From positions 278,177 through 342,176 of the forward strand of contig CAZAXH010000002.1 in assembly GCA_964489065.1 (NCBI GenBank): a stretch of 64,000 nt of DNA, given 5' to 3'. Position numbers and translations under genes: made by a program. This document shows positions 5,757 to 18,116 of this stretch, piece after piece. This stretch comes from an uncultured Planctomycetales bacterium. Its GTDB lineage: Bacteria; Omnitrophota; Gorgyraeia; Zapsychrales; JANLHA01. Positions within the stretch are counted from its first letter, which is position 1, and each line of letters opens with the position of its first letter. The notes beneath the pieces were generated by a model, which was not told where the DNA came from, searched no databases, and saw only the letters and a list, made by a program, of their open reading frames with translations.

Positions 5757-6062
5757 AAGCTTTCGGGATAACCGTACGGTGAAAGTACGGCGGGGTGAGA
5801 GTCCAAGCTGGCAGTGATCCGGGCTGACCGGTAAGCCTGCGAGCCCCCTTATCAGGGGCAGAGCAAGTGCGCTTGTTTTTAGCAACTCTTGAGCCAATAG
5901 TTCCATGCCCGGCATGGACACATTTGCAGGGAAAATAAATGTGAAAGCCTAGAAGAGAGAGAGCTTTGATAATGAAGGTGTCTGACGTCTGAACTGCTTG
6001 TATGATGTCAGCGTTGCGTTATCATGAAGTCCTTATCCCGAGCCCAGGCTCGGTTTTTTTTT
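5757..6062 (+). promoter_or_regulatory. about 300-nt GC-rich structured 5' leader of ribBA ending in an intrinsic terminator; probable riboswitch (FMN class expected from context but not verified)
   Basis: Lies between a consensus promoter and a hairpin plus T9 terminator immediately upstream of the ribBA RBS. It contains FMN-element-like words (GGTGAAAG, GAGAGTCC, ACCGGTAAGCCTGCGAGCC, GGGGCAGAGC). I could not fold it onto the RF00050 consensus by eye. Confidence 0.4.
6038..6062 (+). terminator. Rho-independent terminator / attenuator hairpin followed by a T9 run
   Basis: CCGAGC-CCAG-GCTCGG hairpin (6038-6053) followed by TTTTTTTTT (6054-6062), about 50 nt before the ribBA ATG. Confidence 0.55.
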
Positions 6063-6114
6063 GTCCCGGGTCCAATGGATTTTGGCAAAGGTTATGATGA
6101 GAGAGGGCAGGAAC

Positions 6115-7320
6115 ATGTTTAATTCAATTGAGGAAATTATTGAGGAACTTCGCGCCGGGAACATGGTTATCGTCATGGACGATGAAAACCGGGAAAATGA
6201 GGGGGACCTTGTGTGCGCCGCGCAATTTGTGTCTCCCGAAAAAATAAATTTTATGGCTAAATATGCCCGCGGGCTCATTTGCGTCCCGATGGAGGAAACC
6301 CGGCTGGATGAATTAGGGCTTCATCCGATGAAAGATAATGTTTTTTCTCATTATCAGCATCAATATAGCCACCTGGGCTGGACAATGTCTGTTGACGCGG
6401 CGCAAGGGGTGACAACCGGGATCTCAGCCTTTGACCGCGCGCACACGATTAAAGTTCTCATTGATTCTCAATCCACCCCGGCTGACCTGGAAACGCCGGG
6501 GCACTTGTTTCCATTAAGGGCCCGGAAGGGCGGTGTTCTGGTCCGGGCGGGGCATACGGAAGCTGCGGTCGATTTGATGCGGATATCCGGGCTGTTCCCG
6601 GCGGGTGTTATTTGTGAGATTATGAATGAGGACGGGACTATGGCGCGGATGAAGGAATTGGGCGAGTTCGCCCAAAAGTATAACCTTAAAATGTGTTCTA
6701 TCGCCAGCCTGATTGAGTACCGCCGCCGCTCTGAACGGCTGATTTCCCGGGGGGTCGAAGCCGTGCTCCCGACCAAGTACGGGACGTTTCGGTTATGCGG
6801 TTATGAGTCCCGGCTAGATAAGCAGGCGCATCTCGCCCTAATCATGGGGGAGATTGACGCCTCGCAGCCGCAACTGGTCCGGGTTCAGTCCGAATGCTTG
6901 ACCGGGGATGTGTTTGGTTCCCTGCGCTGTGACTGCAATGAACAACTGCATAGTGCGATGAGAATGATCCGGGACAATGGCTCCGGGATTTTGCTTTATA
7001 TGCGTCAGGAAGGCCGGGGTATAGGCCTGATTAACAAAATCAAGGCGTATCATCTTCAGGACGAAGGGATGGACACCGTGGAAGCGAACGAAGCTTTGGG
7101 TTTTGCTGCGGATTTAAGAGATTACGGGATCGGCGCCCAGATTCTTGTGGATTTGGGGGTTAAGCAGATTCGTCTTTTAACGAATAACCCCCGGAAAATT
7201 GTCGGGTTTGAAGGGTATGGTTTGAAAGTGGTGGAACGGGTCCCCCTGCAAGTGCCTCTCACGCCGGACAACACGAATTATTTGAAGACAAAGAAGGAAA
7301 AGCTAGGACATCTTTTATGA
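6115..7320 (+). CDS. ribBA: bifunctional 3,4-dihydroxy-2-butanone-4-phosphate synthase / GTP cyclohydrolase II
   Basis: DHBP synthase N-terminal half (RENEGDLV, a GHTEAAVDL-type motif) and GTP cyclohydrolase II C-terminal half (CxC ... CDCNEQL zinc motif, RQEGRGIGL). The ATG at 6115 follows a GAGAGGG RBS downstream of the terminator. Confidence 0.9.
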
Positions 7321-7373
7321 AAAGAGCCGGGCCCAGACGCGCTGGCGTGTTTCAGGAGGCATTTTAAAAAGTC

Positions 7374-7811
7374 ATGGCAGCAAAGAAAAATTATGTTATT
7401 ATTGTTTCACGTTTTAATGAGATGATTACCCACCGCTTGCTTGAGGGATGTGAGGGACAGCTCCTGAAACGAGGGATTCGTAAAAATGCTGTACGCGTTG
7501 TGTGGGTGCCGGGCGCTTTTGAAATCCCCGTGGCCGCGCTGAAAGCGGCCAGAAAACAAACAACGGCGGCCGTAATCTGTCTCGGAGCGGTTGTCCGGGG
7601 CGAAACGTATCATTTTGAGTTGGTGGCCCAGAACGCGGCGAAAGGGATTCTGGACGTTTCCCTTTTAACCGGCAAGCCAGTCATTTTCGGGGTTTTAACG
7701 ACGGAAACGCTGGATCAGGCTTATAAACGCTCGGATGTCAAAGGAGACCACAAAGGCCGGGACGCGGCCGATGTGGCCGTGGACATGGTTCAAACCTTGG
7801 TGAATATTTAA
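7374..7811 (+). CDS. ribH: 6,7-dimethyl-8-ribityllumazine synthase
   Basis: 145 aa. The VSRFNE ... WVPGAFEIP ... VICLGAVVRGETYHFE motifs are characteristic of RibH. Confidence 0.9.
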   Translation: MAAKKNYVIIVSRFNEMITHRLLEGCEGQLLKRGIRKNAVRVVWVPGAFEIPVAALKAARKQTTAAVICLGAVVRGETYHFELVAQNAAKGILDVSLLTGKPVIFGVLTTETLDQAYKRSDVKGDHKGRDAADVAVDMVQTLVNI

Positions 7812-8269
7812 TGGACGACGAGTCAATAAATAAAAGTAGTATGCGCAAACGGTCTTTGGCCAGGGAATACGCGCTGATTATCCTTTATCAGAAAGACGTA
7901 ACCGCCCAGGATGTTGATCATAAAGTCCGCCAGTTCTGGGAAGAAACCGAAGATACCCACACAGAGGTCAAGGAATTCGCGAACCGGCTGGTTTACGGCG
8001 TTAACCGGGAACTGGAAGAGATTGATAAAAAGATCGCTTATTACGCGACGAATTGGCAGTTGAAGCGGATGGCCACTATTGACCGGAATATATTAAGACT
8101 CGGGGTCTTCGAATTTTTTTATGCCCCGGATATCCCTCCCAAAGTCACGATTAATGAAGCCGTGGAGCTGGCCAAGAAATTCGGGGACTTGGAATCCAGC
8201 AAATTTGTTAACGGCATTCTGGACAAAATTCATAAAACCGAAGTGGTTCTTCTTAAAGAGCAGAAGTGA
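7811..8269 (+). CDS. nusB: transcription antitermination factor NusB
   Basis: 152 aa with NusB-family helices (REYALIILYQ ... DRNILRLGVFEF ... INEAVELAKKFG). Conserved position after ribH. Confidence 0.85.
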   Translation: MDDESINKSSMRKRSLAREYALIILYQKDVTAQDVDHKVRQFWEETEDTHTEVKEFANRLVYGVNRELEEIDKKIAYYATNWQLKRMATIDRNILRLGVFEFFYAPDIPPKVTINEAVELAKKFGDLESSKFVNGILDKIHKTEVVLLKEQK

Positions 8270-9090
8270 CCGGGTCCGCAGATCTCCATATTCACACGTA
8301 CTATTCCGATAGCACATATACCCCGGAAGAAGTGTTGCAGCATGCTGTTGCCGCCGGATTGGACTGTATCGCGATCACGGACCATGATACGGTGGAAGGG
8401 GTCCAACCCGTCAAGGATCTCGCTGTCCCTTATGATGTCGAAGTCGTTTCCGGCGTCGAGTTATCCAGCGAGGAAGAAGGTCGCGATATTCATGTCCTAG
8501 GATATTTCATTGACCAGGAGAACAGCGCTTTGCTTTCGGCGTTACGGCATTTCCAGGATATCCGGGTTGAACGCATTCACCTCATGCTGGAGAAGCTGGG
8601 CCAGATGGGAATCCATAATATTACGTTTGAAGAAGTTGATGCCCAAACCAAAGCGGATGTCGTCGGCCGTCTGCATCTCGCTCAACTGCTGATCCGGAAA
8701 GGCTGGGCCGCGGACCATCGGGAGGCGTTTGCGAAATATCTCGGGGAAGGCGCGCCGGCGTATGTGAAGAAAAGCCGTCTGAACGTGCGGGAAGCGATGG
8801 GGCTGATTCATCAGGCCGGAGGTTTGGCGGTGCTCGCTCACCCGATGGTGACAAACGTCGACCATTTAATCCCCCGTTTTGCCAGAGAGGGCTTGGATGG
8901 GCTGGAGGTCTATTATCCTCACACGTATGAGACGATTACGCAATATTACGAGCGGAAAGCGGATAAATACGGGTTGTTACGGACCGGAGGTTCAGACGCG
9001 CACGGCCAGCATAAAAATCATACTTATATAGGGAAGCTGAAAATACCTTATACCTTAGTGGATCAGATGAAAGAACGTTTGGAGAGCTGA
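8266..9090 (+). CDS. PHP-domain metal-dependent phosphoesterase (TrpH/YciV-like)
   Basis: N-terminal DLHIHTYYSD ... IAITDHDT PHP motifs and a C-terminal GGSDAHG motif. GTG start overlapping the nusB stop. Confidence 0.75.
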   Translation: MTGSADLHIHTYYSDSTYTPEEVLQHAVAAGLDCIAITDHDTVEGVQPVKDLAVPYDVEVVSGVELSSEEEGRDIHVLGYFIDQENSALLSALRHFQDIRVERIHLMLEKLGQMGIHNITFEEVDAQTKADVVGRLHLAQLLIRKGWAADHREAFAKYLGEGAPAYVKKSRLNVREAMGLIHQAGGLAVLAHPMVTNVDHLIPRFAREGLDGLEVYYPHTYETITQYYERKADKYGLLRTGGSDAHGQHKNHTYIGKLKIPYTLVDQMKERLES

Positions 9091-10196
9091 TGCAAGACCG
9101 CGTGGCGAGGGAGGAGTATTATATGCAGTTGGCCTATGAACTGGCTTTAAAAGGCCGAGGGAAAACATCCCCTAATCCTATGGTAGGCGCGGTGATTGTG
9201 AAACATAACCGCGTCATCGGCCGGGGCTGGCATCGCCGTTGCGGAGGCCCACATGCGGAAATTCTGGCGATGCGTCAGGCCGGCCCTCGCGCCGTCAAGG
9301 ATGCGGCGCTTTATGTCACCCTGGAACCGTGTTTCGTCCATGGCCGCACCCCGCCCTGCGTGGACGCGGTGATCGCCTCCGGCATTAAAACGGTCGTGAT
9401 CGGGGTGAAGGATCCCAATCCTGCGACGCACGGCAAGTCCATCAGGAAATTGCGCCGGGCCGGGATTGCGGTGCGGGTGGGTGTCCTCTCCGGCTGCCTG
9501 ACGGAAATGAACACAGCCTTTGAGAAATATATCCTGACCGGAATGCCGTGGGTTGTGGCTAAGACAGCCCAGACTCTTGACGGTAAGATTGCGTCTTCCA
9601 CCGGCCATTCGCAGTGGATCACTTCCCCGCAGGCCCGCCGGTTCGCCCGGACACTCCGCAACGAATTTGACGCCATTATGGTAGGTGTGGAAACGGTTCT
9701 GAAAGATGATCCGGCTTTGAACCCGGATTCTCCCCGGCGGCCGTTAAAAAAAATTGTGGTTGACAGCCGTTTGCGCACACCGTTGCACGCCCGGCTTTTC
9801 CAGGGGAGCGATCCGGGGGATTGCTGGCTGGCCACCTCGGCTCTGGCTGATCCGGCCCGCGTTGAACGGTACCGTCGCCGGGGGCATGAAGTTATGATTT
9901 GCCCGGGCCGGCAGGGCCAGGTTGATTTACCTTGGTTATTCCGTTCCCTCCCTCAAAAGGGTGTGACCAGTGTCCTGATTGAAGGGGGGGCTCGTCTGAT
10001 CGGCTCCGCGTTAAAAGACAAACTGGTGGACCGGATGCATGTTTATATCGCTCCCGCGATTTTGGGGGACGCCGGCGGTTTGAGTTCGGTCGTCGGGTTT
10101 CAACGGCTCAAGATCAATGAATGCACCCGGCTGTCCTGGTTGCATTCCCGCTTGATCGGTCAGGATATGTTTATTCAGGCCCAAGTGAATTATTAG
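9090..10196 (+). CDS. ribD: bifunctional diaminohydroxyphosphoribosylaminopyrimidine deaminase / 5-amino-6-(5-phosphoribosylamino)uracil reductase
   Basis: CMP/dCMP-type deaminase zinc motifs (HAEILA ... PCVHGRTPPC) followed by a RibD C-terminal reductase domain. An alternative start at 9123 sits behind a GAGGGAGGAG RBS. Confidence 0.9.
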   Translation: MQDRVAREEYYMQLAYELALKGRGKTSPNPMVGAVIVKHNRVIGRGWHRRCGGPHAEILAMRQAGPRAVKDAALYVTLEPCFVHGRTPPCVDAVIASGIKTVVIGVKDPNPATHGKSIRKLRRAGIAVRVGVLSGCLTEMNTAFEKYILTGMPWVVAKTAQTLDGKIASSTGHSQWITSPQARRFARTLRNEFDAIMVGVETVLKDDPALNPDSPRRPLKKIVVDSRLRTPLHARLFQGSDPGDCWLATSALADPARVERYRRRGHEVMICPGRQGQVDLPWLFRSLPQKGVTSVLIEGGARLIGSALKDKLVDRMHVYIAPAILGDAGGLSSVVGFQRLKINECTRLSWLHSRLIGQDMFIQAQVNY

Positions 10197-10210
10197 GGAA
10201 GGAGTCTTTT

Positions 10211-10810
10211 ATGTTTTCAGGAATTGTGGAAGAATATGGCGTGATCCAGAGTGTGCAGAAGAAGGAAAACCTTTTTGTTTTGGCTGTCCAGGGGAACAGA
10301 GTCCTGGGCGGCACGAAGGTCGGGGACAGCATTTGCGTGAACGGGGTATGCTTGACAGTCACGGGGAAAACACAAAAGCTGTTGATGTTTGACCTGATGA
10401 AGGAGACACTGGTGGCCACCAGTCTGAAGAATGCCGGGCCGGGCGGGAAGGTGAACCTGGAACGGTCGCTTAAAATGAGCAGCCGGATTGGAGGGCACTT
10501 CGTGACCGGACATGTTGACGGAACCGGCGAGATCCGTAAAATCGTGACCCTGCCGAATTATGTGGAATTCCGTATCAGCGCCCCGCGGGACCTTATGAAA
10601 TATATCGCCCCGAAGGGCTCGGTCGCCGTTGACGGCGTCAGCCTGACTATCGGCCGCGTGACCCGGGATTATTTCAGTGTTTATCTTATCCCGCACACCC
10701 TGGAGGTGACCACGTTTGGCCAGACCCGGGAAGGGGATCAGGTCAATTTAGAGACGGACATCCTGGCGAAATATTTGTTGCACAGTAATAGTTACTTGAA
10801 TTTGAAATAA
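10211..10810 (+). CDS. ribE: riboflavin synthase (alpha subunit)
   Basis: MFSGIVEE N-terminus and the duplicated lumazine-binding repeat (GxxxxVNGVCLTV / SVAVDGVSLT). GGGAAGGAG RBS before the ATG at 10211. Confidence 0.9.
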   Translation: MFSGIVEEYGVIQSVQKKENLFVLAVQGNRVLGGTKVGDSICVNGVCLTVTGKTQKLLMFDLMKETLVATSLKNAGPGGKVNLERSLKMSSRIGGHFVTGHVDGTGEIRKIVTLPNYVEFRISAPRDLMKYIAPKGSVAVDGVSLTIGRVTRDYFSVYLIPHTLEVTTFGQTREGDQVNLETDILAKYLLHSNSYLNLK

Positions 10811-10835
10811 TACGGATTTCCTTTATAATAATATT

Positions 10836-12077
10836 ATGAAAAAAATCGTAATTACCGGACTTGGTGTCCTCGCCTCGAACGGCCAGGGCAAAGACAATTT
10901 CTGGAGAGCCCTGCAGGAGGGGGTCGCCGGATATGGCCCGCTCACGGTGTTTGACCCTGAACCCTTCCGGGTGAAACAGGCGGCGGAGATTAAGGATTTT
11001 GACGCCAAGGTTTACTTGGGGCCGAAGGGGCTCCGGACCCTGGACCGCAGCAGCCGCTTGGCGGTTTCCGCGACGAAATGCGCAATTGAAGACAGCGGTT
11101 TTCAAATTGATGACGCCAACAGCGATGACGTGGGGGTGGCCCTCGGAACGACGTTCGGGAGCCTGCAGAGCATCGTGGATTTCGACACGGTGATTCTTAA
11201 AGAAGGGCCGCGTTATACCAACCCGGGCCTGTTTCCTAATACCGTGATTAATGCTCCCGGAAGCCAGATTTCTATCTGGCATAATATCCAGGGGTTTAAC
11301 ACCACGATTGCGACAGGCTTCACCGCGAGCCTGGACGCCATGAAATATGCTTATGATTTCCTGCAACTGGGCCGGGTTAAGGTTGTGTATACCGGGGGAC
11401 TGGAGGAACTCTGCTGGCCCACGTTTATGGGCTTCCATTCTTTGCAATTTCTGTCTGGATCCCGGGAAGGTCAGCCGTTTGTGAATTGTCCGTTTGATCT
11501 CCGTCGAAACGGGATTACTCTTGGGGAAGGGGCTTGCGTGGTGGCGATGGAAGATTACGACCACGCCGTTAAACGGGGTGCCCGCATCATGGCGGAGGTG
11601 TTGTCGTTTGGTCATTATTTTGATCCGTACCGGATTAATAAATACAATCCGCGGGGGACGGGCATGGGGAAGGCGATGCGGGCGGCCCTGGACGAAGCCG
11701 GCCTGGAGGCTGGGGATATTGATTATATTTGCGCCAACGCCAATTCCACTTTGGCGGCGGATAAAATCGAAAGCCAGGCGATTCAGGATGTTTTCGGCGC
11801 CCGGGCCAAGACGATTCCGGTCAGCGCGGTCAAGTCTATGGTGGGGGAATGTTATAGCGCTTCGGGGGCCTTAGCTGTGGCCGCCGGCCTGGGCGCTCTG
11901 GAAAAGGACTTTATCCCGCCGACGATTAATTATGCGAACCCTGATCCTGACTGCCTGCTGGATGTCGTTCCCAATACAGCCCGGTCAGCCCGGTTGAACA
12001 GGATTTTAATCAATAATTTCAGCCCTACGGGAAATCAGGCCTGCCTGGTGATAGCCCGGGCAGGGAGTGCCGTATGA
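10836..12077 (+). CDS. beta-ketoacyl-ACP synthase II (FabF)-like protein with all three catalytic triad residues substituted; predicted non-catalytic KAS paralog
   Basis: Aligns collinearly with E. coli FabF across its length. The active-site Cys position (IATAC in FabF) reads IATGF, the first His (NAHGTST) reads NANST, and the second His (KSMTGH) reads KSMVGE. Confidence 0.8.
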   Translation: MKKIVITGLGVLASNGQGKDNFWRALQEGVAGYGPLTVFDPEPFRVKQAAEIKDFDAKVYLGPKGLRTLDRSSRLAVSATKCAIEDSGFQIDDANSDDVGVALGTTFGSLQSIVDFDTVILKEGPRYTNPGLFPNTVINAPGSQISIWHNIQGFNTTIATGFTASLDAMKYAYDFLQLGRVKVVYTGGLEELCWPTFMGFHSLQFLSGSREGQPFVNCPFDLRRNGITLGEGACVVAMEDYDHAVKRGARIMAEVLSFGHYFDPYRINKYNPRGTGMGKAMRAALDEAGLEAGDIDYICANANSTLAADKIESQAIQDVFGARAKTIPVSAVKSMVGECYSASGALAVAAGLGALEKDFIPPTINYANPDPDCLLDVVPNTARSARLNRILINNFSPTGNQACLVIARAGSAV

Positions 12078-12826
12078 CACAGGCTTTCAAAGGAAAAGTG
12101 GCGGTTGTGACCGGCGGCTCCCGGGGGATTGGCCGGGCGATTGCCCTGATGTTCGCCGGGGAAGGTGCGGATGTCGCGTTCAGTTATTACACCCGGACCG
12201 AGGCGGCTGAATCTTTGGAGAAAGAGATCCTCGCGCGTGGCGTCCGGTGTGATAAGGCCTGCGTCGACGTGAAGGATTTCGCCGGTGTCAAAGAATGGAT
12301 TGCCGGGGTTAAGGAGCGTCTGGGCGGCGTAGATATTCTGGTGAACAACGCCGGGATCGTCCAGGATAAAGCGCTTATGCTCATGTCGCCGGAAGACTGG
12401 CAGGCGGTTATTGATACGAACTTAACCGGGATGTTTAACGTGACCCGGGCCTGCATCGTGACGTTTTTAAAACAGAAAAGCGGACAGATCATTCAGGTTT
12501 CTTCCGTCAGCGGGGTTGTGGGGCTTCCCCGGCAGACCAATTATTCCGCCTCCAAGGGCGGAGTGAACGCTTTTACAAAATCTTTGGCCAAGGAAGTCGC
12601 CGCTTACGGGATCCGGGTCAACGCGGTGGCTCCCGGGTATATTGAGACCGATATCCTGTCCGGCCTTTCTGAGGAGCAAAGGGAGACGTTCCTGAAAAAT
12701 ATTCCGCTGGGCCGGCTCGGCCGACCGGAAGAAGTGGCGGCTTGCGTGAAGTTTCTCGTGAGCAAAGCCGCGCAGTATATTACGGGCCAGGTGATTCAGA
12801 TGGATGGGGGCTTGGCGATCCGGTAA
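12074..12826 (+). CDS. fabG: 3-oxoacyl-ACP reductase (SDR family)
   Basis: TGGSRGIGRAIA Rossmann motif, NNAG, and a catalytic S ... YSASK triad. ATGA overlap with the upstream KAS-like gene. Confidence 0.85.
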   Translation: MTQAFKGKVAVVTGGSRGIGRAIALMFAGEGADVAFSYYTRTEAAESLEKEILARGVRCDKACVDVKDFAGVKEWIAGVKERLGGVDILVNNAGIVQDKALMLMSPEDWQAVIDTNLTGMFNVTRACIVTFLKQKSGQIIQVSSVSGVVGLPRQTNYSASKGGVNAFTKSLAKEVAAYGIRVNAVAPGYIETDILSGLSEEQRETFLKNIPLGRLGRPEEVAACVKFLVSKAAQYITGQVIQMDGGLAIR

Positions 12827-12885
12827 GTTTGAGTTATAATAAATTTTTTTCTTGTCAATAAAACCAATGAGGAATGGAGTCTGTC

Positions 12886-13320
12886 ATGGAATTAAGTGTT
12901 TGTGATATTCAGAAAATTATCCCGCATCGTTTCCCGTTTCTTTTGATTGACAGGGTGCTGGACATCCGCCCTAACGAGAAATTAGTGGCTTTAAAAAACG
13001 TGTCGATTAACGAGCAGTTTTTTGTCGGTCATTTCCCGGAAGAGAAGGTTATGCCTGGGGTTCTGATGATTGAAGCTATGGCGCAGGCGGGCTGCATTTA
13101 CTTTTATTACAGCAAGAATATGCAGGGCAAGAAGCTCACCTATTATCTGGCCAAGGTCACGGCCAAGTTCCATAAACCGGTTGTGCCGGGCGATCAATTG
13201 ATCATGGAAGTTACGACCATCAAGATGCTGCCGAAAGCCGGGTTTTTGAGAACTAAAGCCATGGTGGGAGAGTCTGTGGTGGCGGAAGCGGAAATCGGGT
13301 TTGGCATTAAAGAATCTTAA
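12886..13320 (+). CDS. fabZ: 3-hydroxyacyl-ACP dehydratase
   Basis: HRFPFLLIDRV ... FFVGHFP hot-dog motifs with the catalytic His and Glu. The ATG at 12886 is preferred (GGAG 7 nt upstream). Confidence 0.85.
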   Translation: MELSVCDIQKIIPHRFPFLLIDRVLDIRPNEKLVALKNVSINEQFFVGHFPEEKVMPGVLMIEAMAQAGCIYFYYSKNMQGKKLTYYLAKVTAKFHKPVVPGDQLIMEVTTIKMLPKAGFLRTKAMVGESVVAEAEIGFGIKES

Positions 13321-13356
13321 CGAAAAAATTGGGCTGTTTTTTTTCAGACTCAAAAA

Positions 13357-13383
13357 GGCAATCCGGAGGGATTGTCCTTTTTT
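13357..13383 (+). terminator. Rho-independent terminator after fabZ
   Basis: GGCAATCC-GGAG-GGATTGTCC hairpin followed by TTTTTT. Confidence 0.6.
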
Positions 13384-13397
13384 ATGATTGAGAACGC

Positions 13398-14672
13398 ATG
13401 ACAAGACGACCGCTTCAGGAAAATATGGGGCAGCACAATCCTTCCGTTATCGTGGTCGGCGGGGGCCCGGCCGGGATTATGGCCGCCATCAGGGCCGCTC
13501 AATTGGGCGCGAGCGTTGTGTTGCTGGAAAAAAATACGGGCCTTGGACGGAAACTGTTATTGACCGGGAAAGGCCGGTGTAACCTTACGAATGCCGCGGA
13601 CCTGGATGTTTTTTTGCTCAGTTATGGCGCTCATGGGGCTTTTTTGCGGGATGTCTTTAAAAAGTTTTTTAATGCCGAATTGATGCGGTTTTTTGAGGCG
13701 CGGGGCGTTGCTGTAAAAGTAGAGAGGCAGAAACGGGTTTTTCCCGTTTCCGACCGGGCTGGAAGCATCCTGGAAGCCTTAAAAAAGGAATTAAAGGCCT
13801 GCCATGTCAAGGTGCTGTCCCGGACAGAAGTCAGGGATGTCCTCGTGGAGCAGTCGGCCGCCGCAGGGGTGATTTTAACAACGGGGCAACAACTGAAGGG
13901 CGGGCGTGTGATTCTGGCCACCGGAGGGAAATCCTATCCTTTGACCGGATCAACGGGAGAAGGGACCCGGATGGCGGCCCGGTGCGGGCACCGGATCACC
14001 CCTTTACGCCCGGCGCTGGTTGGGCTGGAAACGCGGCAGACTTTCCCGGGAGACCTGCGGGGCCTGACCCTTAAAAATGTTCGCCTCTGCTTTTCAAACG
14101 GCAAGAATCATATCGTTTCAGAAATCGGTGAGTTGCTGTTCACCGATTTCGGGATATCAGGGCCGCTTGTGCTGACCCATAGCGGCCGGGTCGTAGACTG
14201 GGTGAATGCGTCCTCTCCGGTGACCGTGTCTTTGGACCTGAAACCTTCGTTGACAGAAGCCACGCTAAGTCACCGTTTCTTGAATAATGTGCGGGAGTCC
14301 CGTCACCAGAAGCTGAAAAACGCCTTGAAAGATTATTTACCGGCCCGGTTTGTGGATGTCTTTCTCCGGCAGGCGGGGGTATCTCCGGATAAAGCGCTTT
14401 ACCAGGTCAGCCCGGTGGAACAGAAGGCTCTACTCCGGCTTTTTAAGGACTTTAAAATGGATATCAAGGGCTTCCGAAGTTTTATGGAAGCGATGGTGAC
14501 TCAGGGCGGGGTGGACCTCCGGGATATCAATCCTCGGACCATGGAGTCCCGGCTGATTCGGGGGTTGTTTTTTGCCGGGGAGCTGATCGATATTGACGGG
14601 ACCACCGGAGGTTTTAACCTGCAGGCGGCTTTTTCCACCGGTTATATGGCGGGGGAAAAAGCCGCTGTATAG
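13398..14672 (+). CDS. NAD(P)/FAD-dependent flavoprotein of the HI0933/aminoacetone-oxidase-like family
   Basis: N-terminal VIVVGGGPAGIMAAIRAA dinucleotide-binding motif, a C-terminal GGxxxxxGxxAG-type motif, and a length of 424 aa. Confidence 0.8.
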   Translation: MTRRPLQENMGQHNPSVIVVGGGPAGIMAAIRAAQLGASVVLLEKNTGLGRKLLLTGKGRCNLTNAADLDVFLLSYGAHGAFLRDVFKKFFNAELMRFFEARGVAVKVERQKRVFPVSDRAGSILEALKKELKACHVKVLSRTEVRDVLVEQSAAAGVILTTGQQLKGGRVILATGGKSYPLTGSTGEGTRMAARCGHRITPLRPALVGLETRQTFPGDLRGLTLKNVRLCFSNGKNHIVSEIGELLFTDFGISGPLVLTHSGRVVDWVNASSPVTVSLDLKPSLTEATLSHRFLNNVRESRHQKLKNALKDYLPARFVDVFLRQAGVSPDKALYQVSPVEQKALLRLFKDFKMDIKGFRSFMEAMVTQGGVDLRDINPRTMESRLIRGLFFAGELIDIDGTTGGFNLQAAFSTGYMAGEKAAV

Positions 14673-14870: not shown

Positions 14871-15455
14871 ATGCGTTTCCTTATTGTATCCATTCTTTTT
14901 CTTGGCGTGCCGGTGTGCGCCTTTGCCCAGGAGGTCGTCAGGAAGACGAAGGTCATCCGGGGGGAGGAATGCCTGATCGACGTGTTTTATAAAGACGGGC
15001 AGGAAGTCGGTCTGCAGCGGAGGACCGCGGACGGGGAAAAAGAGGTCGAAGGGAATATCCCCGAGGGGAAAGTGAAATTCATTGACCAGACCACAGGTAC
15101 ATATGGAGAAGAGTATTATAAACGGGGGCAAAAACACGGTGTAAGCCGGACATATTTCCCGACCGGGGAATTGATGAAGGAAGTCTATTACATTAAGGGG
15201 ATATTAATAACGGAAAAGGAATTCTTTAAAAACGGCCAGGTGCGTTTTGAGGCGGATTATTCACGGATGTGTGATAGTTGTAAGGGCGGGCATGAAAAAG
15301 GGGCCGGAAAAATTTTTTACTCTGACGGGAAATTAAAATATGAATGGAACTTTAACGTTGAGCAGGATAAAGGGTATCAGCGCGCGTACACGCGAGAGGG
15401 GGAATTGCGTTTTGAAGCGTATTATGACCGGGAGGGCCGGCGCCTTGATGAATAG
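14871..15455 (+). CDS. secreted MORN-repeat-variant (YwqK-family-like) protein
   Basis: Signal peptide (MRFLIVSILFLGVPVCAFAQE) followed by repeated Y-x-x-G-x-x-x-G-x-x-x-x-Y/F units of about 23 aa. Confidence 0.65.
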   Translation: MRFLIVSILFLGVPVCAFAQEVVRKTKVIRGEECLIDVFYKDGQEVGLQRRTADGEKEVEGNIPEGKVKFIDQTTGTYGEEYYKRGQKHGVSRTYFPTGELMKEVYYIKGILITEKEFFKNGQVRFEADYSRMCDSCKGGHEKGAGKIFYSDGKLKYEWNFNVEQDKGYQRAYTREGELRFEAYYDREGRRLDE

Positions 15456-15483
15456 ACACGCTTATCGAATTGTCGGGAAAAGA

Positions 15484-15960
15484 ATGAAACCGGTCGGGCG
15501 GTTCCCGATTGATAACAGAGGGATTTCCTTGACAGAAATCCTGATCTGCGCCGGGATCCTGGTGGTTGTTTTGACGGGGCTGTTCCGGCTTTTTATTTAT
15601 TCCACGGAGCTCAATGACATGTCACGTAATATAACGGTCGCGATGTCAGAGGTTCAGGGGAAAGTGGAGGAAATCCGTAATTATAATTTTAATTTGCTAA
15701 CCACGGATTATGTTTCAGGCGGAACGCCGGGAGATAAGTTTGCTTTGTCTCAAGTGACGGGGATGGGCGTGATTGCAATAGACGCGAGTAATTCTAAGCT
15801 TTTAGGAATTAGAATCGTGGCCTGCTGGCGTAACCAGAACGGCCGGGTGATCGGGGAAGATCAGAATTTAAACGGCACTCTGGATACGGGAGAGGATTTA
15901 AACGGGAACGGAGCCATTGATTCTCCGGCCGTTATTGAAACGTATGTCCCCAGGCTTTAG
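15484..15960 (+). CDS. prepilin-type N-terminal cleavage/methylation-domain protein (minor pilin / pseudopilin-like)
   Basis: RG-ISLTEILICAGILVVVL class-III signal with Glu at position +5 and a hydrophobic helix. C-terminal DxNxNG Ca-binding-like loops. The start at 15484 (after a GGGAAAAG RBS) is preferred over the overlapping 15340. Confidence 0.6.
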   Translation: MKPVGRFPIDNRGISLTEILICAGILVVVLTGLFRLFIYSTELNDMSRNITVAMSEVQGKVEEIRNYNFNLLTTDYVSGGTPGDKFALSQVTGMGVIAIDASNSKLLGIRIVACWRNQNGRVIGEDQNLNGTLDTGEDLNGNGAIDSPAVIETYVPRL

Positions 15961-15989
15961 GGGGCAGGGCGTTCCTAGGGAGGGAAAGG

Positions 15990-16547
15990 ATGTTCTGGAT
16001 GACGAAAGACAGTGTTAAAAAAATGTCCCGGTTCTCTTTGACCCGCGTTTCCGGCTTGACCCTGGTGGAGATTTTGGTGACGGTGGTCGTGTATTCGGTC
16101 GTGATGACCGCGGCGTATTCGGTTTTAACCTCTGGTATCATGACGTGGCAGGTGAATAATGTTAAAGTGGAGCTGCAGCAGGATTTGCGCAAGGCGATGG
16201 ATTGGATGATGCTGGATTTGAGGCAGGCTGGAGCGGTTTCGATTGACGACGTTCCTGTTTCCAACAGCTGGTCGACGGTCATCACGTTTAGTGTGGCCAA
16301 CGGCGTGTCCGGGGGGGGGACCACTTGGACGAGTGATAAAATTAAATATTACCTTTCAGGCGCGTTGTTAAAACGGCAGTACGGGGCGTCCGTCCGTGAT
16401 ATCGCACAGGACATTAGTGTGCTTCAGGTCAGACGGCCGGTTTTGGCCCCGAATACGGTGGAGGTGAATTTGCAGGCGCAAAGGCAGACGACCCAGGGAC
16501 ATACTGTACAGTTGAACCAGTCGTTTGTGGTTAAGTTGAGGAATTAA
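15990..16547 (+). CDS. prepilin-type N-terminal cleavage/methylation-domain protein (PilW/PilV-like minor pilin)
   Basis: SG-LTLVEILVTVVVYSVVM class-III signal peptide with E+5. An alternative start lies at 16023. Confidence 0.6.
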   Translation: MFWMTKDSVKKMSRFSLTRVSGLTLVEILVTVVVYSVVMTAAYSVLTSGIMTWQVNNVKVELQQDLRKAMDWMMLDLRQAGAVSIDDVPVSNSWSTVITFSVANGVSGGGTTWTSDKIKYYLSGALLKRQYGASVRDIAQDISVLQVRRPVLAPNTVEVNLQAQRQTTQGHTVQLNQSFVVKLRN

Positions 16548-16571
16548 AGGGGGCTGGAAAGGAAGCGGATC

Positions 16572-18116
16572 ATGAAAGTCAATAATGAGCGAGGCAGTTT
16601 ATTGGTGATGACGTTGCTTCTGGTGGTGGTGCTTTTGACGTTGGGCTCGGCCTTTGTAGCCATGAGCATGACGGAGAACCGGATTGCCGAACGGGAACGT
16701 CGGAGCGTGGTCGCCTTTCACATCGCGGAAGCGGGAATCGCGCGGGCCGTCTATGATTTGCGGGAGGATTTTTGGAACGATTCCTCCAGCCCGAGCTGGG
16801 CGGACGGAGATATAAACGGCAACGCCGTCAATCTCCCGGACACAACGAATTTTTATCCGATGCCGTATGCCAGCACATCGCTGAATGGCGGCTCTTATTT
16901 GGTTCAGGTGAAAAAGGAAACGGCAGACGGCCGGGCTGTTTCGATGCGGGCCACAGGGACTTTGGGCGATGCGTCGGAAACCATTCAGGTCTATGCCAGG
17001 ATGACATCGGTGTCCCCGTGGGATAATGCGATTTTTGCCGGGACCGGAGCTGACCCGGGGACCGGGGCGACCACGATCGCCGGATGCGTTAACATCAGCG
17101 GTTCGGTGCATATTTTGGGTACGGGGTTGGCCAGTACGGATTACGCCGTGGAGCTGGGAGGGACCGCCGAGTTGATCGGAAATAATTATTCCTCTTTGTC
17201 ATCAGACCTCCGGCGGCGGTTGCCCGCGCTCCCCACCACGGTTTTTAACGGGGAAACGGTGGAAACCCTGAGCGCGGTCCTCCGGGTGAAGCACGGCCTT
17301 GTGGTTTTGGACGGCAGTTCTTCGGTCGGCGTTTCAGATGTCCCGGGCAACTCCGTGAAAGAAACCGCGGACGCGGTTTACAGCACGGACGGGTTTGCCG
17401 GGAATTCCGGCATCGCCAATGTTTATTCTGACAACGGCTGGTCCAACGCCTATGATATGGGAGACGATATTTCGTTCCCCAGCCTTTCCGACCCGTATGG
17501 CGGGTACGCCAGTTATCAGCAGTATCTCCGGGATAATGCCTATGTGATTTCTGCCCCGGCTGATCTGGCCCTTTTGGCCAACATTACCTCTGCGTCAAGT
17601 TTTACGTTAACGGACGCGGGTGGGAAAGGCAGCATCAGTATGGACGGCAGTGGCCATTTAACCGTGGACGGGATCATTTATGTTGAAGGCGGGAACATGA
17701 GTTTTGGCGGAGGGAGTGACATCATTTATACGGGGAAAGCCTCTATTTTGGTCACCGGCAATATTAACGTGGAGACGAATTTAGTGACCCCGGCCGTCCC
17801 TGTCGGCGGGGAACACAATTTTCCGTATGTGCCGTCTACCGGGGATGAAAATATTATTGGGTTCATGACCCCGAATAACATTGCGCTTGGAACATCCTCT
17901 CAACTGGATGTTATGGGCCTTTTTTACGGGGAAACTAAAATCTCCATCAATAAACAGACGGATTTGATGGGGTCGATTGTGACCAACTTTTTTGACCTGA
18001 CTGGCCAGGTCCCGAACATTTATCAGGTTCCGGAGGCGAAAAATTATCTTCCTCCGGGCATGATCGGATCCACCGGAGGCTGGAATATGGCCCTGTTGTC
18101 CTGGCGGCGGATATAA
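16572..18116 (+). CDS. PilX-N-terminal-domain protein fused to a Gly/Ser/Thr-rich predicted beta-helical C-terminal domain
   Basis: N-terminus MKVNNERGSLLVMTLLLVVVLLTLGSAFVAMSMTENRIAERERRSVVAFHIAEAG matches the PilX_N pattern (RG ... hydrophobic ... E.R.A.N.R ... AF.AAEA). The remaining ~430 aa are G/S/T/N-rich repeats. Confidence 0.65.
   Translation: MKVNNERGSLLVMTLLLVVVLLTLGSAFVAMSMTENRIAERERRSVVAFHIAEAGIARAVYDLREDFWNDSSSPSWADGDINGNAVNLPDTTNFYPMPYASTSLNGGSYLVQVKKETADGRAVSMRATGTLGDASETIQVYARMTSVSPWDNAIFAGTGADPGTGATTIAGCVNISGSVHILGTGLASTDYAVELGGTAELIGNNYSSLSSDLRRRLPALPTTVFNGETVETLSAVLRVKHGLVVLDGSSSVGVSDVPGNSVKETADAVYSTDGFAGNSGIANVYSDNGWSNAYDMGDDISFPSLSDPYGGYASYQQYLRDNAYVISAPADLALLANITSASSFTLTDAGGKGSISMDGSGHLTVDGIIYVEGGNMSFGGGSDIIYTGKASILVTGNINVETNLVTPAVPVGGEHNFPYVPSTGDENIIGFMTPNNIALGTSSQLDVMGLFYGETKISINKQTDLMGSIVTNFFDLTGQVPNIYQVPEAKNYLPPGMIGSTGGWNMALLSWRRI

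Follow-up and report, generated by a model that had tools for sequence, protein, structure and literature searches.

The DNA analysed here is a stretch of 64,000 nucleotides (the window, from whose first letter all window coordinates are counted) belonging to an uncultured bacterium of the Omnitrophota (assembly GCA_964489065.1, contig CAZAXH010000002.1, positions 278,177 to 342,176). At the head of a short fatty-acid synthesis operon it encodes a paralogue of FabF, referred to as KSmut, in which the catalytic residues of a ketosynthase (KS) have been replaced. KSmut is probably the non-catalytic, chain-length-factor-like half of a heterodimeric FabF-type KS in Omnitrophota, a reading to which a probability of about 0.75 is assigned. 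Its proposed partner, an active KS of the amxFabF2 type known from anammox bacteria, is referred to as FabFp, and the hot-dog gene lying beside FabFp as FabZ2.

The operon and its setting comprise the following features of the window, with the basis of each in brackets.

10836..12077, + strand: KSmut, non-catalytic FabF paralogue, 413 aa (Pfam, NCBIfam, solved relatives, AlphaFold2 (AF2) model, ratio of nonsynonymous to synonymous substitution rates (dN/dS))
11232..11252, + strand: codons of FPNTVIN (F133-P-N-T136-V137-I-N139) in the helix-loop-helix (invariant in the family alignment headed by chain C of structure 9S5H, 9s5h_C)
11307..11321, + strand: IATGF, with Phe162 for the nucleophilic Cys163 (alignment to FabF)
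11730..11750, + strand: CANANST, with Asn301 for His303 and Asn303 for Thr305 (alignment to FabF)
11832..11849, + strand: KSMVGE, with Lys333 kept and Glu338 for His340 (alignment to FabF)
12074..12826, + strand: fabG, 3-oxoacyl-acyl carrier protein (ACP) reductase, 250 aa (TIGR01830 and motifs)
12874..13320, + strand: fabZ, 3-hydroxyacyl-ACP dehydratase, 148 aa (TIGR01750, GHFP with the catalytic His, and Glu)
13357..13376, + strand: terminator-like hairpin followed by a T-run, likely the operon end (consensus scan only)
6061..10810, + strand: riboflavin operon ribBA-ribH-nusB-PHP-ribD-ribE, context and not part of the system (synteny)

Both KS domains of Pfam, PF00109 and PF02801, are matched end to end by KSmut, which is collinear with E. 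coli FabF and about 33-37% identical to canonical FabF proteins (E. coli, B. subtilis). When aligned by MAFFT with E. coli FabF and by HMMER with solved FabFs, KSmut has Phe162, Asn301 and Glu338 in place of Cys163, His303 and His340, and Lys335 is kept as Lys333; furthermore, Thr305 is replaced by Asn303 and the gating Phe400 by Pro397. An earlier note, made from the letters of this DNA, had described a collinear 413-aa homologue with these three replacements and a retained Lys, and that description holds. Since Phe, Asn and Glu stand at the positions of the acyl-accepting Cys and of the two decarboxylation His residues, KSmut cannot condense. Its score against the NCBIfam model of FabF (TIGR03150) is 349.9, under the equivalog cut-off of 493.75. 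The AF2 model of the monomer is confident overall (predicted local distance difference test, pLDDT, 90.6; predicted template modelling score, pTM, 0.93), and Foldseek aligns it to B. subtilis FabF (4ls5/4ls8) with a template modelling (TM) score of 0.95; because the structural library used ends in April 2026 and predates 9S5H, this search could confirm the FabF fold alone.

KSmut is a real and conserved protein that is not decaying. Conservation was assessed in the 120 database clusters closest to it, which are 60-96% identical and, where named, all Candidatus Omnitrophota: Phe is found in 120/120, Asn in 115/120 and Glu in 118/120, which answers favourably the check across orthologues that had been proposed for these substitutions. 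Over the wider family, all 86 full-length members examined (86/86) combine the loss of the triad with a retained Lys335 and an acidic residue at the His340 position. The identical KSmut protein is encoded in two independent Logan assemblies and, as Phe, Asn and Glu are also kept in homologues, the substitutions are not sequencing errors. Against orthologues that are 95%, 85% and 66% identical, dN/dS of KSmut is 0.12, 0.09 and 0.06, similar to the 0.07-0.17 of fabG, and shows that KSmut is under purifying selection.

The best solved relative of KSmut is 9s5h chain C (E 1e-121, 410 bits, 48% identity over the full length), compared with 271 bits for the best catalytic FabF and 263 bits for amxFabF2 (9s5h_B). 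Chain C of 9S5H/9S5I is amxFabFmut of Brocadia fulgida (Broful02170), the orthologue of Kuste3606 (Granatino et al., bioRxiv 2026, doi 10.64898/2026.05.19.726425). The family is not of an unknown kind: it was first noted, and its mutated triad tabulated, by Rattray et al. 2009 (PMC2649909), and it has been characterised structurally and biochemically in the 2026 preprint. In that work amxFabF2 and amxFabFmut, each inactive alone, co-purify, jointly decarboxylate malonyl-ACP and form acetoacetyl-ACP, and in the crystal Phe135, Thr138 and Val139 of amxFabFmut line the acyl tunnel of amxFabF2, where mutants shift the chain-length preference (Granatino et al. 2026). On all four sequence and structure points tested KSmut agrees with this family, and it is an orthologue of anammox amxFabFmut.

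The residues that in B. fulgida are Phe135, Thr138 and Val139 correspond to F133, T136 and V137 of KSmut, which lie in the invariant FPNTVIN motif. In a KS dimer, the helix-loop-helix of one subunit covers the second subunit's active site. No part of KSmut is more conserved than this segment (E. coli positions 121-150), at 0.90-0.97 over 120 proteins, and no part of FabFp is less conserved, at 0.26-0.49 over 174 proteins. Such a pattern would arise if the KSmut copy is constrained because it guards a working site and the FabFp copy drifts because it guards a dead one; the asymmetry is what an obligate heterodimer would predict and would not be expected of FabFp homodimers. Moreover, an exhaustive search of representatives recovered natural fusions of about 800-830 aa (P0295, P0298, P0301, P0303, P0305, P0308 and about 60 more representatives), in which an N-terminal intact KS is joined to a C-terminal dead KS with an FPNTV-type motif; the N-terminal KS shows the residue pattern CHTKHF together with a degenerate helix-loop-helix. 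In a neighbour-joining tree (no bootstrap) KSmut and FabFp form parallel clades in which the taxa follow one and the same order, and both clades lie apart from the FabF proteins of E. coli and Listeria. The AF2 monomer, confident elsewhere, is not so over residues 110-140, with the lowest pLDDT at 133-138, that is, at FPNTVI; this matches the disorder reported for amxFabFmut without its partner, the protein of Scalindua having crystallised as a homodimer with a disordered interface at residues 110-130 (Granatino et al. 2026).

The distribution of the family was surveyed by scanning GTDB species representatives with the alignment headed by 9s5h_C, which returned 360 stretches, the 80 best loci being annotated. 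The best 80 of the 360 belong to Brocadiales (62-94% identity), then to Omnitrophota and to six metagenome-assembled genomes of Thermodesulfovibrionia/Nitrospirota (46-52%). The gene orders found are as follows.

Anammox: ACP-FabZ-FabF-KSmut
Joined type, Omnitrophota: KSmut-FabG-ACP-FabZ-FabF
Thermodesulfovibrionia: KSmut-FabZ-FabF-ACP
Split type, Omnitrophota (the window and about 30 further loci): rib operon-KSmut-FabG-FabZ; KS and ACP both absent within 10 kb

Throughout the best 80 loci, the KS proteins that neighbour KSmut carry the full Cys-His-Lys-His-Phe set (47/47), and the triad is absent from every KSmut. An adjacent active KS is present in anammox, joined Omnitrophota, Thermodesulfovibrionia and the loci L069 and L092; no other KS lies within 10 kb of KSmut in 30-odd loci of the window's own clade. 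The ACPs of the joined operons carry DSMMALE(I/V)LA, near to DSLLALEILA of amxACP and unlike the canonical DSLDTVELV, and the joined-type FabZ proteins carry the Ile signature of amxFabZ, where the window FabZ has Cys. No enoyl reductase was found in the joined operons, which consist of KS, dead KS, ketoreductase, ACP and dehydratase. The rib operon upstream of KSmut is the synteny that marks the split Omnitrophota clade, and this synteny of rib genes and ligA is housekeeping-like.

In the window itself, KSmut begins 25 nt after the riboflavin operon and is co-directional with fabG and fabZ. At 12074-12077 an ATGA, read directly in the sequence, overlaps the fabG start with the KSmut stop codon, and the KSmut-fabG pairing is kept in nearly all Omnitrophota loci. 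Both downstream genes pass their NCBIfam equivalog cut-offs, FabG with 304.3 against 297.75 (TIGR01830) and FabZ with 165.4 against 155.15 (TIGR01750), and their motifs are present (TGGSRGIG, NNAG and YSASK in FabG; GHFP and the catalytic Glu in FabZ). The translational coupling, the active-looking reductase and dehydratase, and the terminator after fabZ, which the consensus scan returns as a hairpin with a T-run, are thus as the earlier note had them. The best solved relatives of the window FabZ are the anammox amxFabZ structures (7qv0, E 1.9e-35), about 8 bits above ordinary FabZ; of the two signature positions of amxFabZ one agrees, the residue equivalent to position 115 being hydrophobic and that at Ile69 a Cys.

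The query used to trace the partner in split genomes was the active KS from locus L069, a locus whose dead KS falls in the split clade. A single contig of 229,850 bp, JBFOMO010000179.1, carries both subunits: KSmut P0009, 66-67% identical to that of the window, in the order rib operon-KSmut-FabG-[insertion]-FabZ at about 29-50 kb, and FabFp P0159 in the order yceD-rpmF-plsX-fabH-fabD-FabZ2-FabFp at about 157-178 kb, some 128 kb from the KSmut operon. The FabFp cluster recurs on four more contigs (188 kb, 917 kb, 659 kb and 312 kb), and on none of the five does the rpmF-plsX-fabH-fabD-FabZ2-FabFp cluster include fabG or acpP. The bit scores of P0159 are 450-480 with amxFabF2 of anammox bacteria and 480-540 with the joined-type partners; E. 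coli FabF reaches about 305-325 bits against the same anammox amxFabF2 proteins. FabFp, with its Cys-His-His residues intact, is by these scores a KS of amxFabF2 type.

Two loci of the split clade still hold the subunits together, L092 as FabG-ACP-KSmut-FabZ2-FabFp-methyltransferase-KS3 and L069 as KSmut-toxin/antitoxin-FabZ2-FabFp, and the FabFp genes of joined and split genomes have downstream neighbours in common, including a HisKA_7TM kinase. The most economical history would have KSmut-fabG(-fabZ) relocated behind the rib operon. Of the 80 loci that a scan of metagenomes with FabFp returned, 41 adjoin KSmut, 9 belong to the plsX-fabH-fabD-FabZ2 cluster, 30 extend too little upstream for a judgement and 0 have another context; the scan gave no match on the JGI contig carrying P0030. 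For the window organism, the partner gene is predicted to lie elsewhere in the genome in an rpmF-plsX-fabH-fabD cluster.

Taken as a mechanism, KSmut keeps the FabF fold and performs no condensation, its proposed job being structural. It would pair with an active FabFp of amxFabF2 type, and its F133, T136 and V137 would build part of the wall of the FabFp acyl tunnel, enabling activity and shaping chain-length preference in the manner of a chain-length factor. An ancestral operon KSmut-fabG-ACP-fabZ-FabFp would have been split, leaving KSmut-fabG-fabZ behind the rib operon and FabFp in the rpmF-plsX-fabH-fabD cluster, so that the window operon would contribute three components of one elongation cycle, namely dead KS subunit, ketoreductase and dehydratase. 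The cycle served is most likely the cell's ordinary type II fatty-acid synthesis, because the FabFp cluster has no fabG and FabZ2 is without its catalytic His in four of five cases. A broader proposal, which we advance tentatively and consider somewhat less than evenly balanced, is that in Omnitrophota, and probably in Thermodesulfovibrionia, housekeeping type II fatty-acid synthesis runs on the FabFp and KSmut heterodimer in place of a homodimeric FabF; the part of the anammox system that resembles fatty-acid synthesis (amxFabF2, amxFabFmut, amxFabZ, amxACP) would then be an offshoot of a widespread module and not a ladderane-specific invention.

Several points weigh against the reading of KSmut as a heterodimer subunit in ordinary fatty-acid synthesis. 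Within the 64-kb window neither tblastn with KS and E. coli AcpP nor phmmer with the PlsX, FabH and FabD of a relative found a second KS, an ACP, PlsX, FabH or FabD, in agreement with the earlier statement that acpP, fabD and a functional KS are missing from it. Among the matches listed, the window's own subclade (the window and P0001-P0005) yielded no partner, nor was the ACP of split-type genomes found. On a 3.36-Mb contig carrying the 76%-identical P0005, FabFp is not among the top 120 matches of either search, and the same applies to KSmut contigs of 1.2 Mb, 592 kb and 401 kb; the 229,850-bp contig and one of 11,956 bp were the only ones matched. These lists reach down to about 55-59% identity (54% in one search and 59% in the other) and FabFp diverges faster than KSmut (58% vs 71% for the same genome pair), so that the missing partner is weak evidence. 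Furthermore, the net charge of the helix-loop-helix and contact helix, calculated from sequence, did not reproduce the positive/negative asymmetry of the interface described in the preprint, and the activity reported there in vitro comprises malonyl-ACP decarboxylation and acetoacetyl-ACP formation only, not full elongation (Granatino et al. 2026). Details of the dead pocket may also differ from anammox, given Phe at the Cys position in KSmut where amxFabFmut has Val, Ile, Thr or Glu, and the role in primary fatty-acid synthesis is inferred from gene neighbourhoods. Of the earlier suggestion of a non-catalytic partner subunit with its KS elsewhere, the first part gains from the orthology to amxFabFmut and the second from the FabFp found on the same contig in a relative; for the window organism, whose own partner was not found in these searches, heterodimer formation is what the relatives lead one to expect.

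The alternative that survives best, though we consider it unlikely, leaves the dead-partner mechanism unchanged and assigns the module to a dedicated special-lipid or polyene pathway, or to the making of short C6-C8 chains (e.g. octanoyl-ACP for lipoate). The gene content of the joined operons is in keeping with it, as a KS and chain-length factor with ketoreductase, dehydratase and ACP but without enoyl reductase is the make-up of highly reducing type II polyketide synthases (PKSs) such as those of ishigamide and aryl polyenes. Structurally, amxFabF2 is closest to the ishigamide KS, and both the anammox heterodimer and amxFabZ prefer C6-C8 substrates (Granatino et al. 2026). The Ile signature of the joined-type FabZ proteins, the lipB-like and lpdA-like genes just upstream of KSmut in L080, and the methyltransferase and third KS added in some loci also speak for a special pathway. 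In the window's clade, however, the classical place of fabF in rpmF-plsX-fabH-fabD is taken by the partner KS, in a cluster without fabG and usually without an intact fabZ, and the cell's own fatty-acid synthesis would seem to need the window operon. Moreover, the window's fabG and fabZ exceed strict equivalog cut-offs, the tunnel position of FabZ is Cys and not Ile, and the synteny with rib genes and ligA is of a housekeeping kind. The window operon contains no ACP, radical-SAM, phytoene-desaturase-like, thioesterase or tailoring genes; a small radical-SAM gene lies about 8 kb upstream of it, with unrelated genes between. The specialised acyl-chain modification module suggested in the earlier note is for these reasons, the housekeeping synteny and a partner KS in a cluster without fabG and mostly without an intact fabZ, not preferred.

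It is improbable that KSmut of the split lineage has lost its partner and acts as a homodimer, whether by binding acyl-ACP or ACP as a scaffold or by regulating FabG and FabZ. The lack of a partner within 64 kb, and of one for the window's subclade among the matches listed, would agree with this, as would the tight and conserved ATGA coupling to fabG and the homodimer crystal of Scalindua amxFabFmut. That homodimer, however, has a disordered interface and is inactive (Granatino et al. 2026). Across the 120 clade proteins the best-conserved segment is the helix-loop-helix, whose sole known role is to complete the active site of a partner, and FabFp occurs on the KSmut contig in one member of this clade and adjacent to KSmut in two others, L069 and L092. 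For a regulatory pseudo-enzyme, also considered earlier, nothing was found in support.

A new catalytic activity of KSmut, through Glu338 and Asn301 in a remodelled pocket, is highly improbable. The near-universal Glu at the His340 position and Lys335 could be read in this way, and the crystal shows a tunnel toward the dead site and bound polyethylene glycol (Granatino et al. 2026). Nevertheless, variation is free at the Cys position (F, V, I, E, Y, M, A, G and others) and likewise at that of His303 (N, S, G, C, A, T, D), which is not the pattern of an active site; in addition, amxFabFmut alone showed no activity and no crosslinking in vitro (Granatino et al. 2026). Finally, a recently inactivated fabF drifting towards a pseudogene, or sequencing errors, two outcomes that by the earlier note would refute its reading, have the loss of the triad itself and nothing more in their favour and are refuted by the intact full-length frame, the identical protein in two assemblies, dN/dS of 0.06-0.12 and substitutions conserved across Omnitrophota, Thermodesulfovibrionia and anammox.

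Some loci of the family carry further genes. FabZ2 lies directly upstream of FabFp in split-type Omnitrophota, often overlapping it, and in four of five cases it is without the catalytic His, GHFP being replaced by GQGY, GQAD, DRCR or GDPE and the Glu being kept.

L088 9562-10008: FabZ2 without the catalytic His
L092 3249-3692: FabZ2 without the catalytic His
L093 7573-8004: FabZ2 without the catalytic His
L095 7570-8001: FabZ2 without the catalytic His
L094 6896-7336: FabZ2, the exception to the loss of the catalytic His

FabZ2 may be a second pseudo-enzyme of this pathway and perhaps pairs with the intact FabZ that a window-type operon encodes. Small genes for the "23S rRNA intervening sequence protein" (PF05635 / bAvd-like) occur in several copies per locus in L088, L093, L094 and L069; around FabFp, fabH and fabD are separated by one of them, and FabZ2 and FabFp by another. 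In one locus of the joined type only, L080, a dihydrolipoyl-dehydrogenase-like (lpdA-like) gene and a lipoyl/octanoyl-transferase gene (LplA-B_cat, lipB-like) at 7340-9266 precede KSmut-FabG-ACP-FabZ-FabFp; since the anammox enzymes prefer C6-C8 substrates, a connection with the supply of octanoyl-ACP and lipoate comes to mind. Many of the joined operons extend into a methyltransferase gene, a third and more divergent KS, or both. Both are found in L092 (4954-7430), whose third KS, the one examined, has an intact Cys-His-His, and a weaker second KS follows FabFp in L103, L111, L121, L125-L127, L130, L131, L143, L151, L154, L156, L165 and L175. The third KS and methyltransferase suggest extra chain-modifying steps in some lineages.

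Around the window operon, a near-consensus sigma-70-like site on the + strand at 10802-10829 (TTGAAA, 16 nt, TATAAT; 11/12 matches) runs across the stop codon of ribE to a point 6 nt ahead of the KSmut ATG, and the AT-rich gap of 25 nt before KSmut shows no Shine-Dalgarno sequence. The KSmut transcript may be leaderless, or the match may be owed to AT-richness. Directly after the operon terminator, at 13398-14672 (+), lies a gene for an HI0933-like flavoprotein (TIGR00275, "aminoacetone oxidase family"), which is found at that position only in the window's own subclade (L001-L003) and not in L004, L006 or L090; being so confined, its link to the fab operon is doubtful. Within the riboflavin operon, a PHP-domain phosphoesterase gene at 8266-9090 (+) stands between nusB and ribD, a position kept in the Omnitrophota loci L001-L006 and L090, and might encode the missing phosphatase of riboflavin synthesis. 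Further downstream, at 15340-18116 (+), a MORN-repeat-like lipoprotein gene is followed by pseudopilin-like genes with N-terminal hydrophobic helices, including one for a 514-aa PilX_N protein; this run is conserved in L001 and L003. Nearly all 2-kb bins of the whole window (1-64000) have a positive GC skew, the cumulative skew rising to 4.2, and all genes listed around the operon are on the + strand, which together are consistent with a long leading-strand stretch of genes.

The presence of the KSmut family across non-anammox phyla, embedded in housekeeping fab clusters, is stated in no searchable paper; in the searchable literature on amxFabZ, ladderane ketosynthases and the FabF chain-length factor, no link of the family to Omnitrophota or Nitrospirota was found. 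The gene cluster has been called unique to ladderane producers, and amxFabFmut the first chain-length factor in fatty-acid synthesis (Granatino et al. 2026). With the former statement the 360 GTDB stretches conflict, as genes for a two-subunit KS occur in hundreds of genomes not known for ladderanes; beyond anammox, the best of these stretches belong to Omnitrophota and Thermodesulfovibrionia, and the active subunit is often in the rpmF-plsX-fabH-fabD slot. This argues against the use of amxFabF2/amxFabFmut-type genes as ladderane markers and offers easier, non-anammox sources for studies of the heterodimer. It may be that in some phyla bacterial lipid synthesis has, as one of its ordinary variants, a heterodimeric FabF and, if housekeeping fatty-acid synthesis does run on it, the ladderane-specific genes would narrow to the radical-SAM and desaturase-like enzymes. 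In addition, KSmut proteins now carry the annotation "beta-ketoacyl-ACP synthase family protein" or "synthase II", and a metabolic reconstruction should leave them out when it counts functional condensing enzymes.

Among known systems, the canonical homodimeric FabF has the same fold and length as KSmut and is collinear with it at a TM score of 0.95, but it has the triad and Phe400, both of which KSmut is without. An identity of KSmut as a canonical FabF was rejected on the absence of these residues and the score below the TIGR03150 cut-off.

The chain-length factors of type II PKSs (act 1TQY_B, ishigamide Iga12 6KXD-6KXF, aryl-polyene ApeC) are inactive KS subunits that form obligate heterodimers and shape the tunnel, which is what is proposed for KSmut, and the highly reducing systems work with ketoreductase, dehydratase and ACP, as the KSmut family does. 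Aromatic chain-length factors, however, have Gln at the Cys position, which serves decarboxylative priming, where KSmut has Phe, and chain-length factor genes normally adjoin KS-alpha, whereas the context of KSmut is one of fatty-acid synthesis genes with no adjacent KS in the window. Against the act chain-length factor 1tqy_B KSmut scores 129 bits (E 2e-36), well below ordinary FabFs, and its family stands apart from the chain-length factors. KSmut was rejected as a type II PKS chain-length factor on the Phe in place of Gln, the lack of an adjacent KS and this score.

A parallel in its residues is Kuste2805 of Kuenenia stuttgartiensis, a "non-canonical FabB" whose gene adjoins the FabF gene kuste2804 (PMC2649909 Table 2; Javidpour 2016, PMC4790861). 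With Phe163, Asn298, Asn300, Lys328 and Glu333 (PMC2649909) it shares the replacement set of KSmut, the comparison being by published residues only, and it is likewise a dead KS, standing beside an active one. It differs in Cys302 and Phe392, where KSmut has Thr and Pro, and in a cluster that holds acpS and a radical-SAM gene. Library representatives with the FNNKE[YQC] pattern are about 36-41% identical to KSmut, compared with 48% for amxFabFmut.

Anammox amxFabFmut is encoded in "Cluster I" with amxACP, amxFabZ, amxFabF2, a phytoene-desaturase-like protein and a B12 radical-SAM enzyme (Granatino et al. 2026). The locus of KSmut differs in that KSmut comes first and is coupled to fabG, with no partner KS or ACP, and the B12 radical-SAM, phytoene-desaturase-like, amxACP and Ile69 amxFabZ features of Cluster I have no counterpart in the window operon. 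The hosts are also different, Omnitrophota not being known for ladderanes while the anammox bacteria make them, and the Phe400 position holds Pro in KSmut and Arg, Asp or Tyr in amxFabFmut. Both proteins have a FabF-like fold, that of amxFabFmut being nearest to B. subtilis FabF (Granatino et al. 2026), and in both Cys-His-His is lost, Lys335 is kept and Glu stands at His340. They share the invariant tunnel-lining FPNTV motif and fall in the same clade of the tree. Both families, finally, co-occur with an active KS of amxFabF2 type, with FabZ and, in relatives of the window, with an amxACP-like ACP carrying DS(M/L)(M/L)ALE(I/V)LA.

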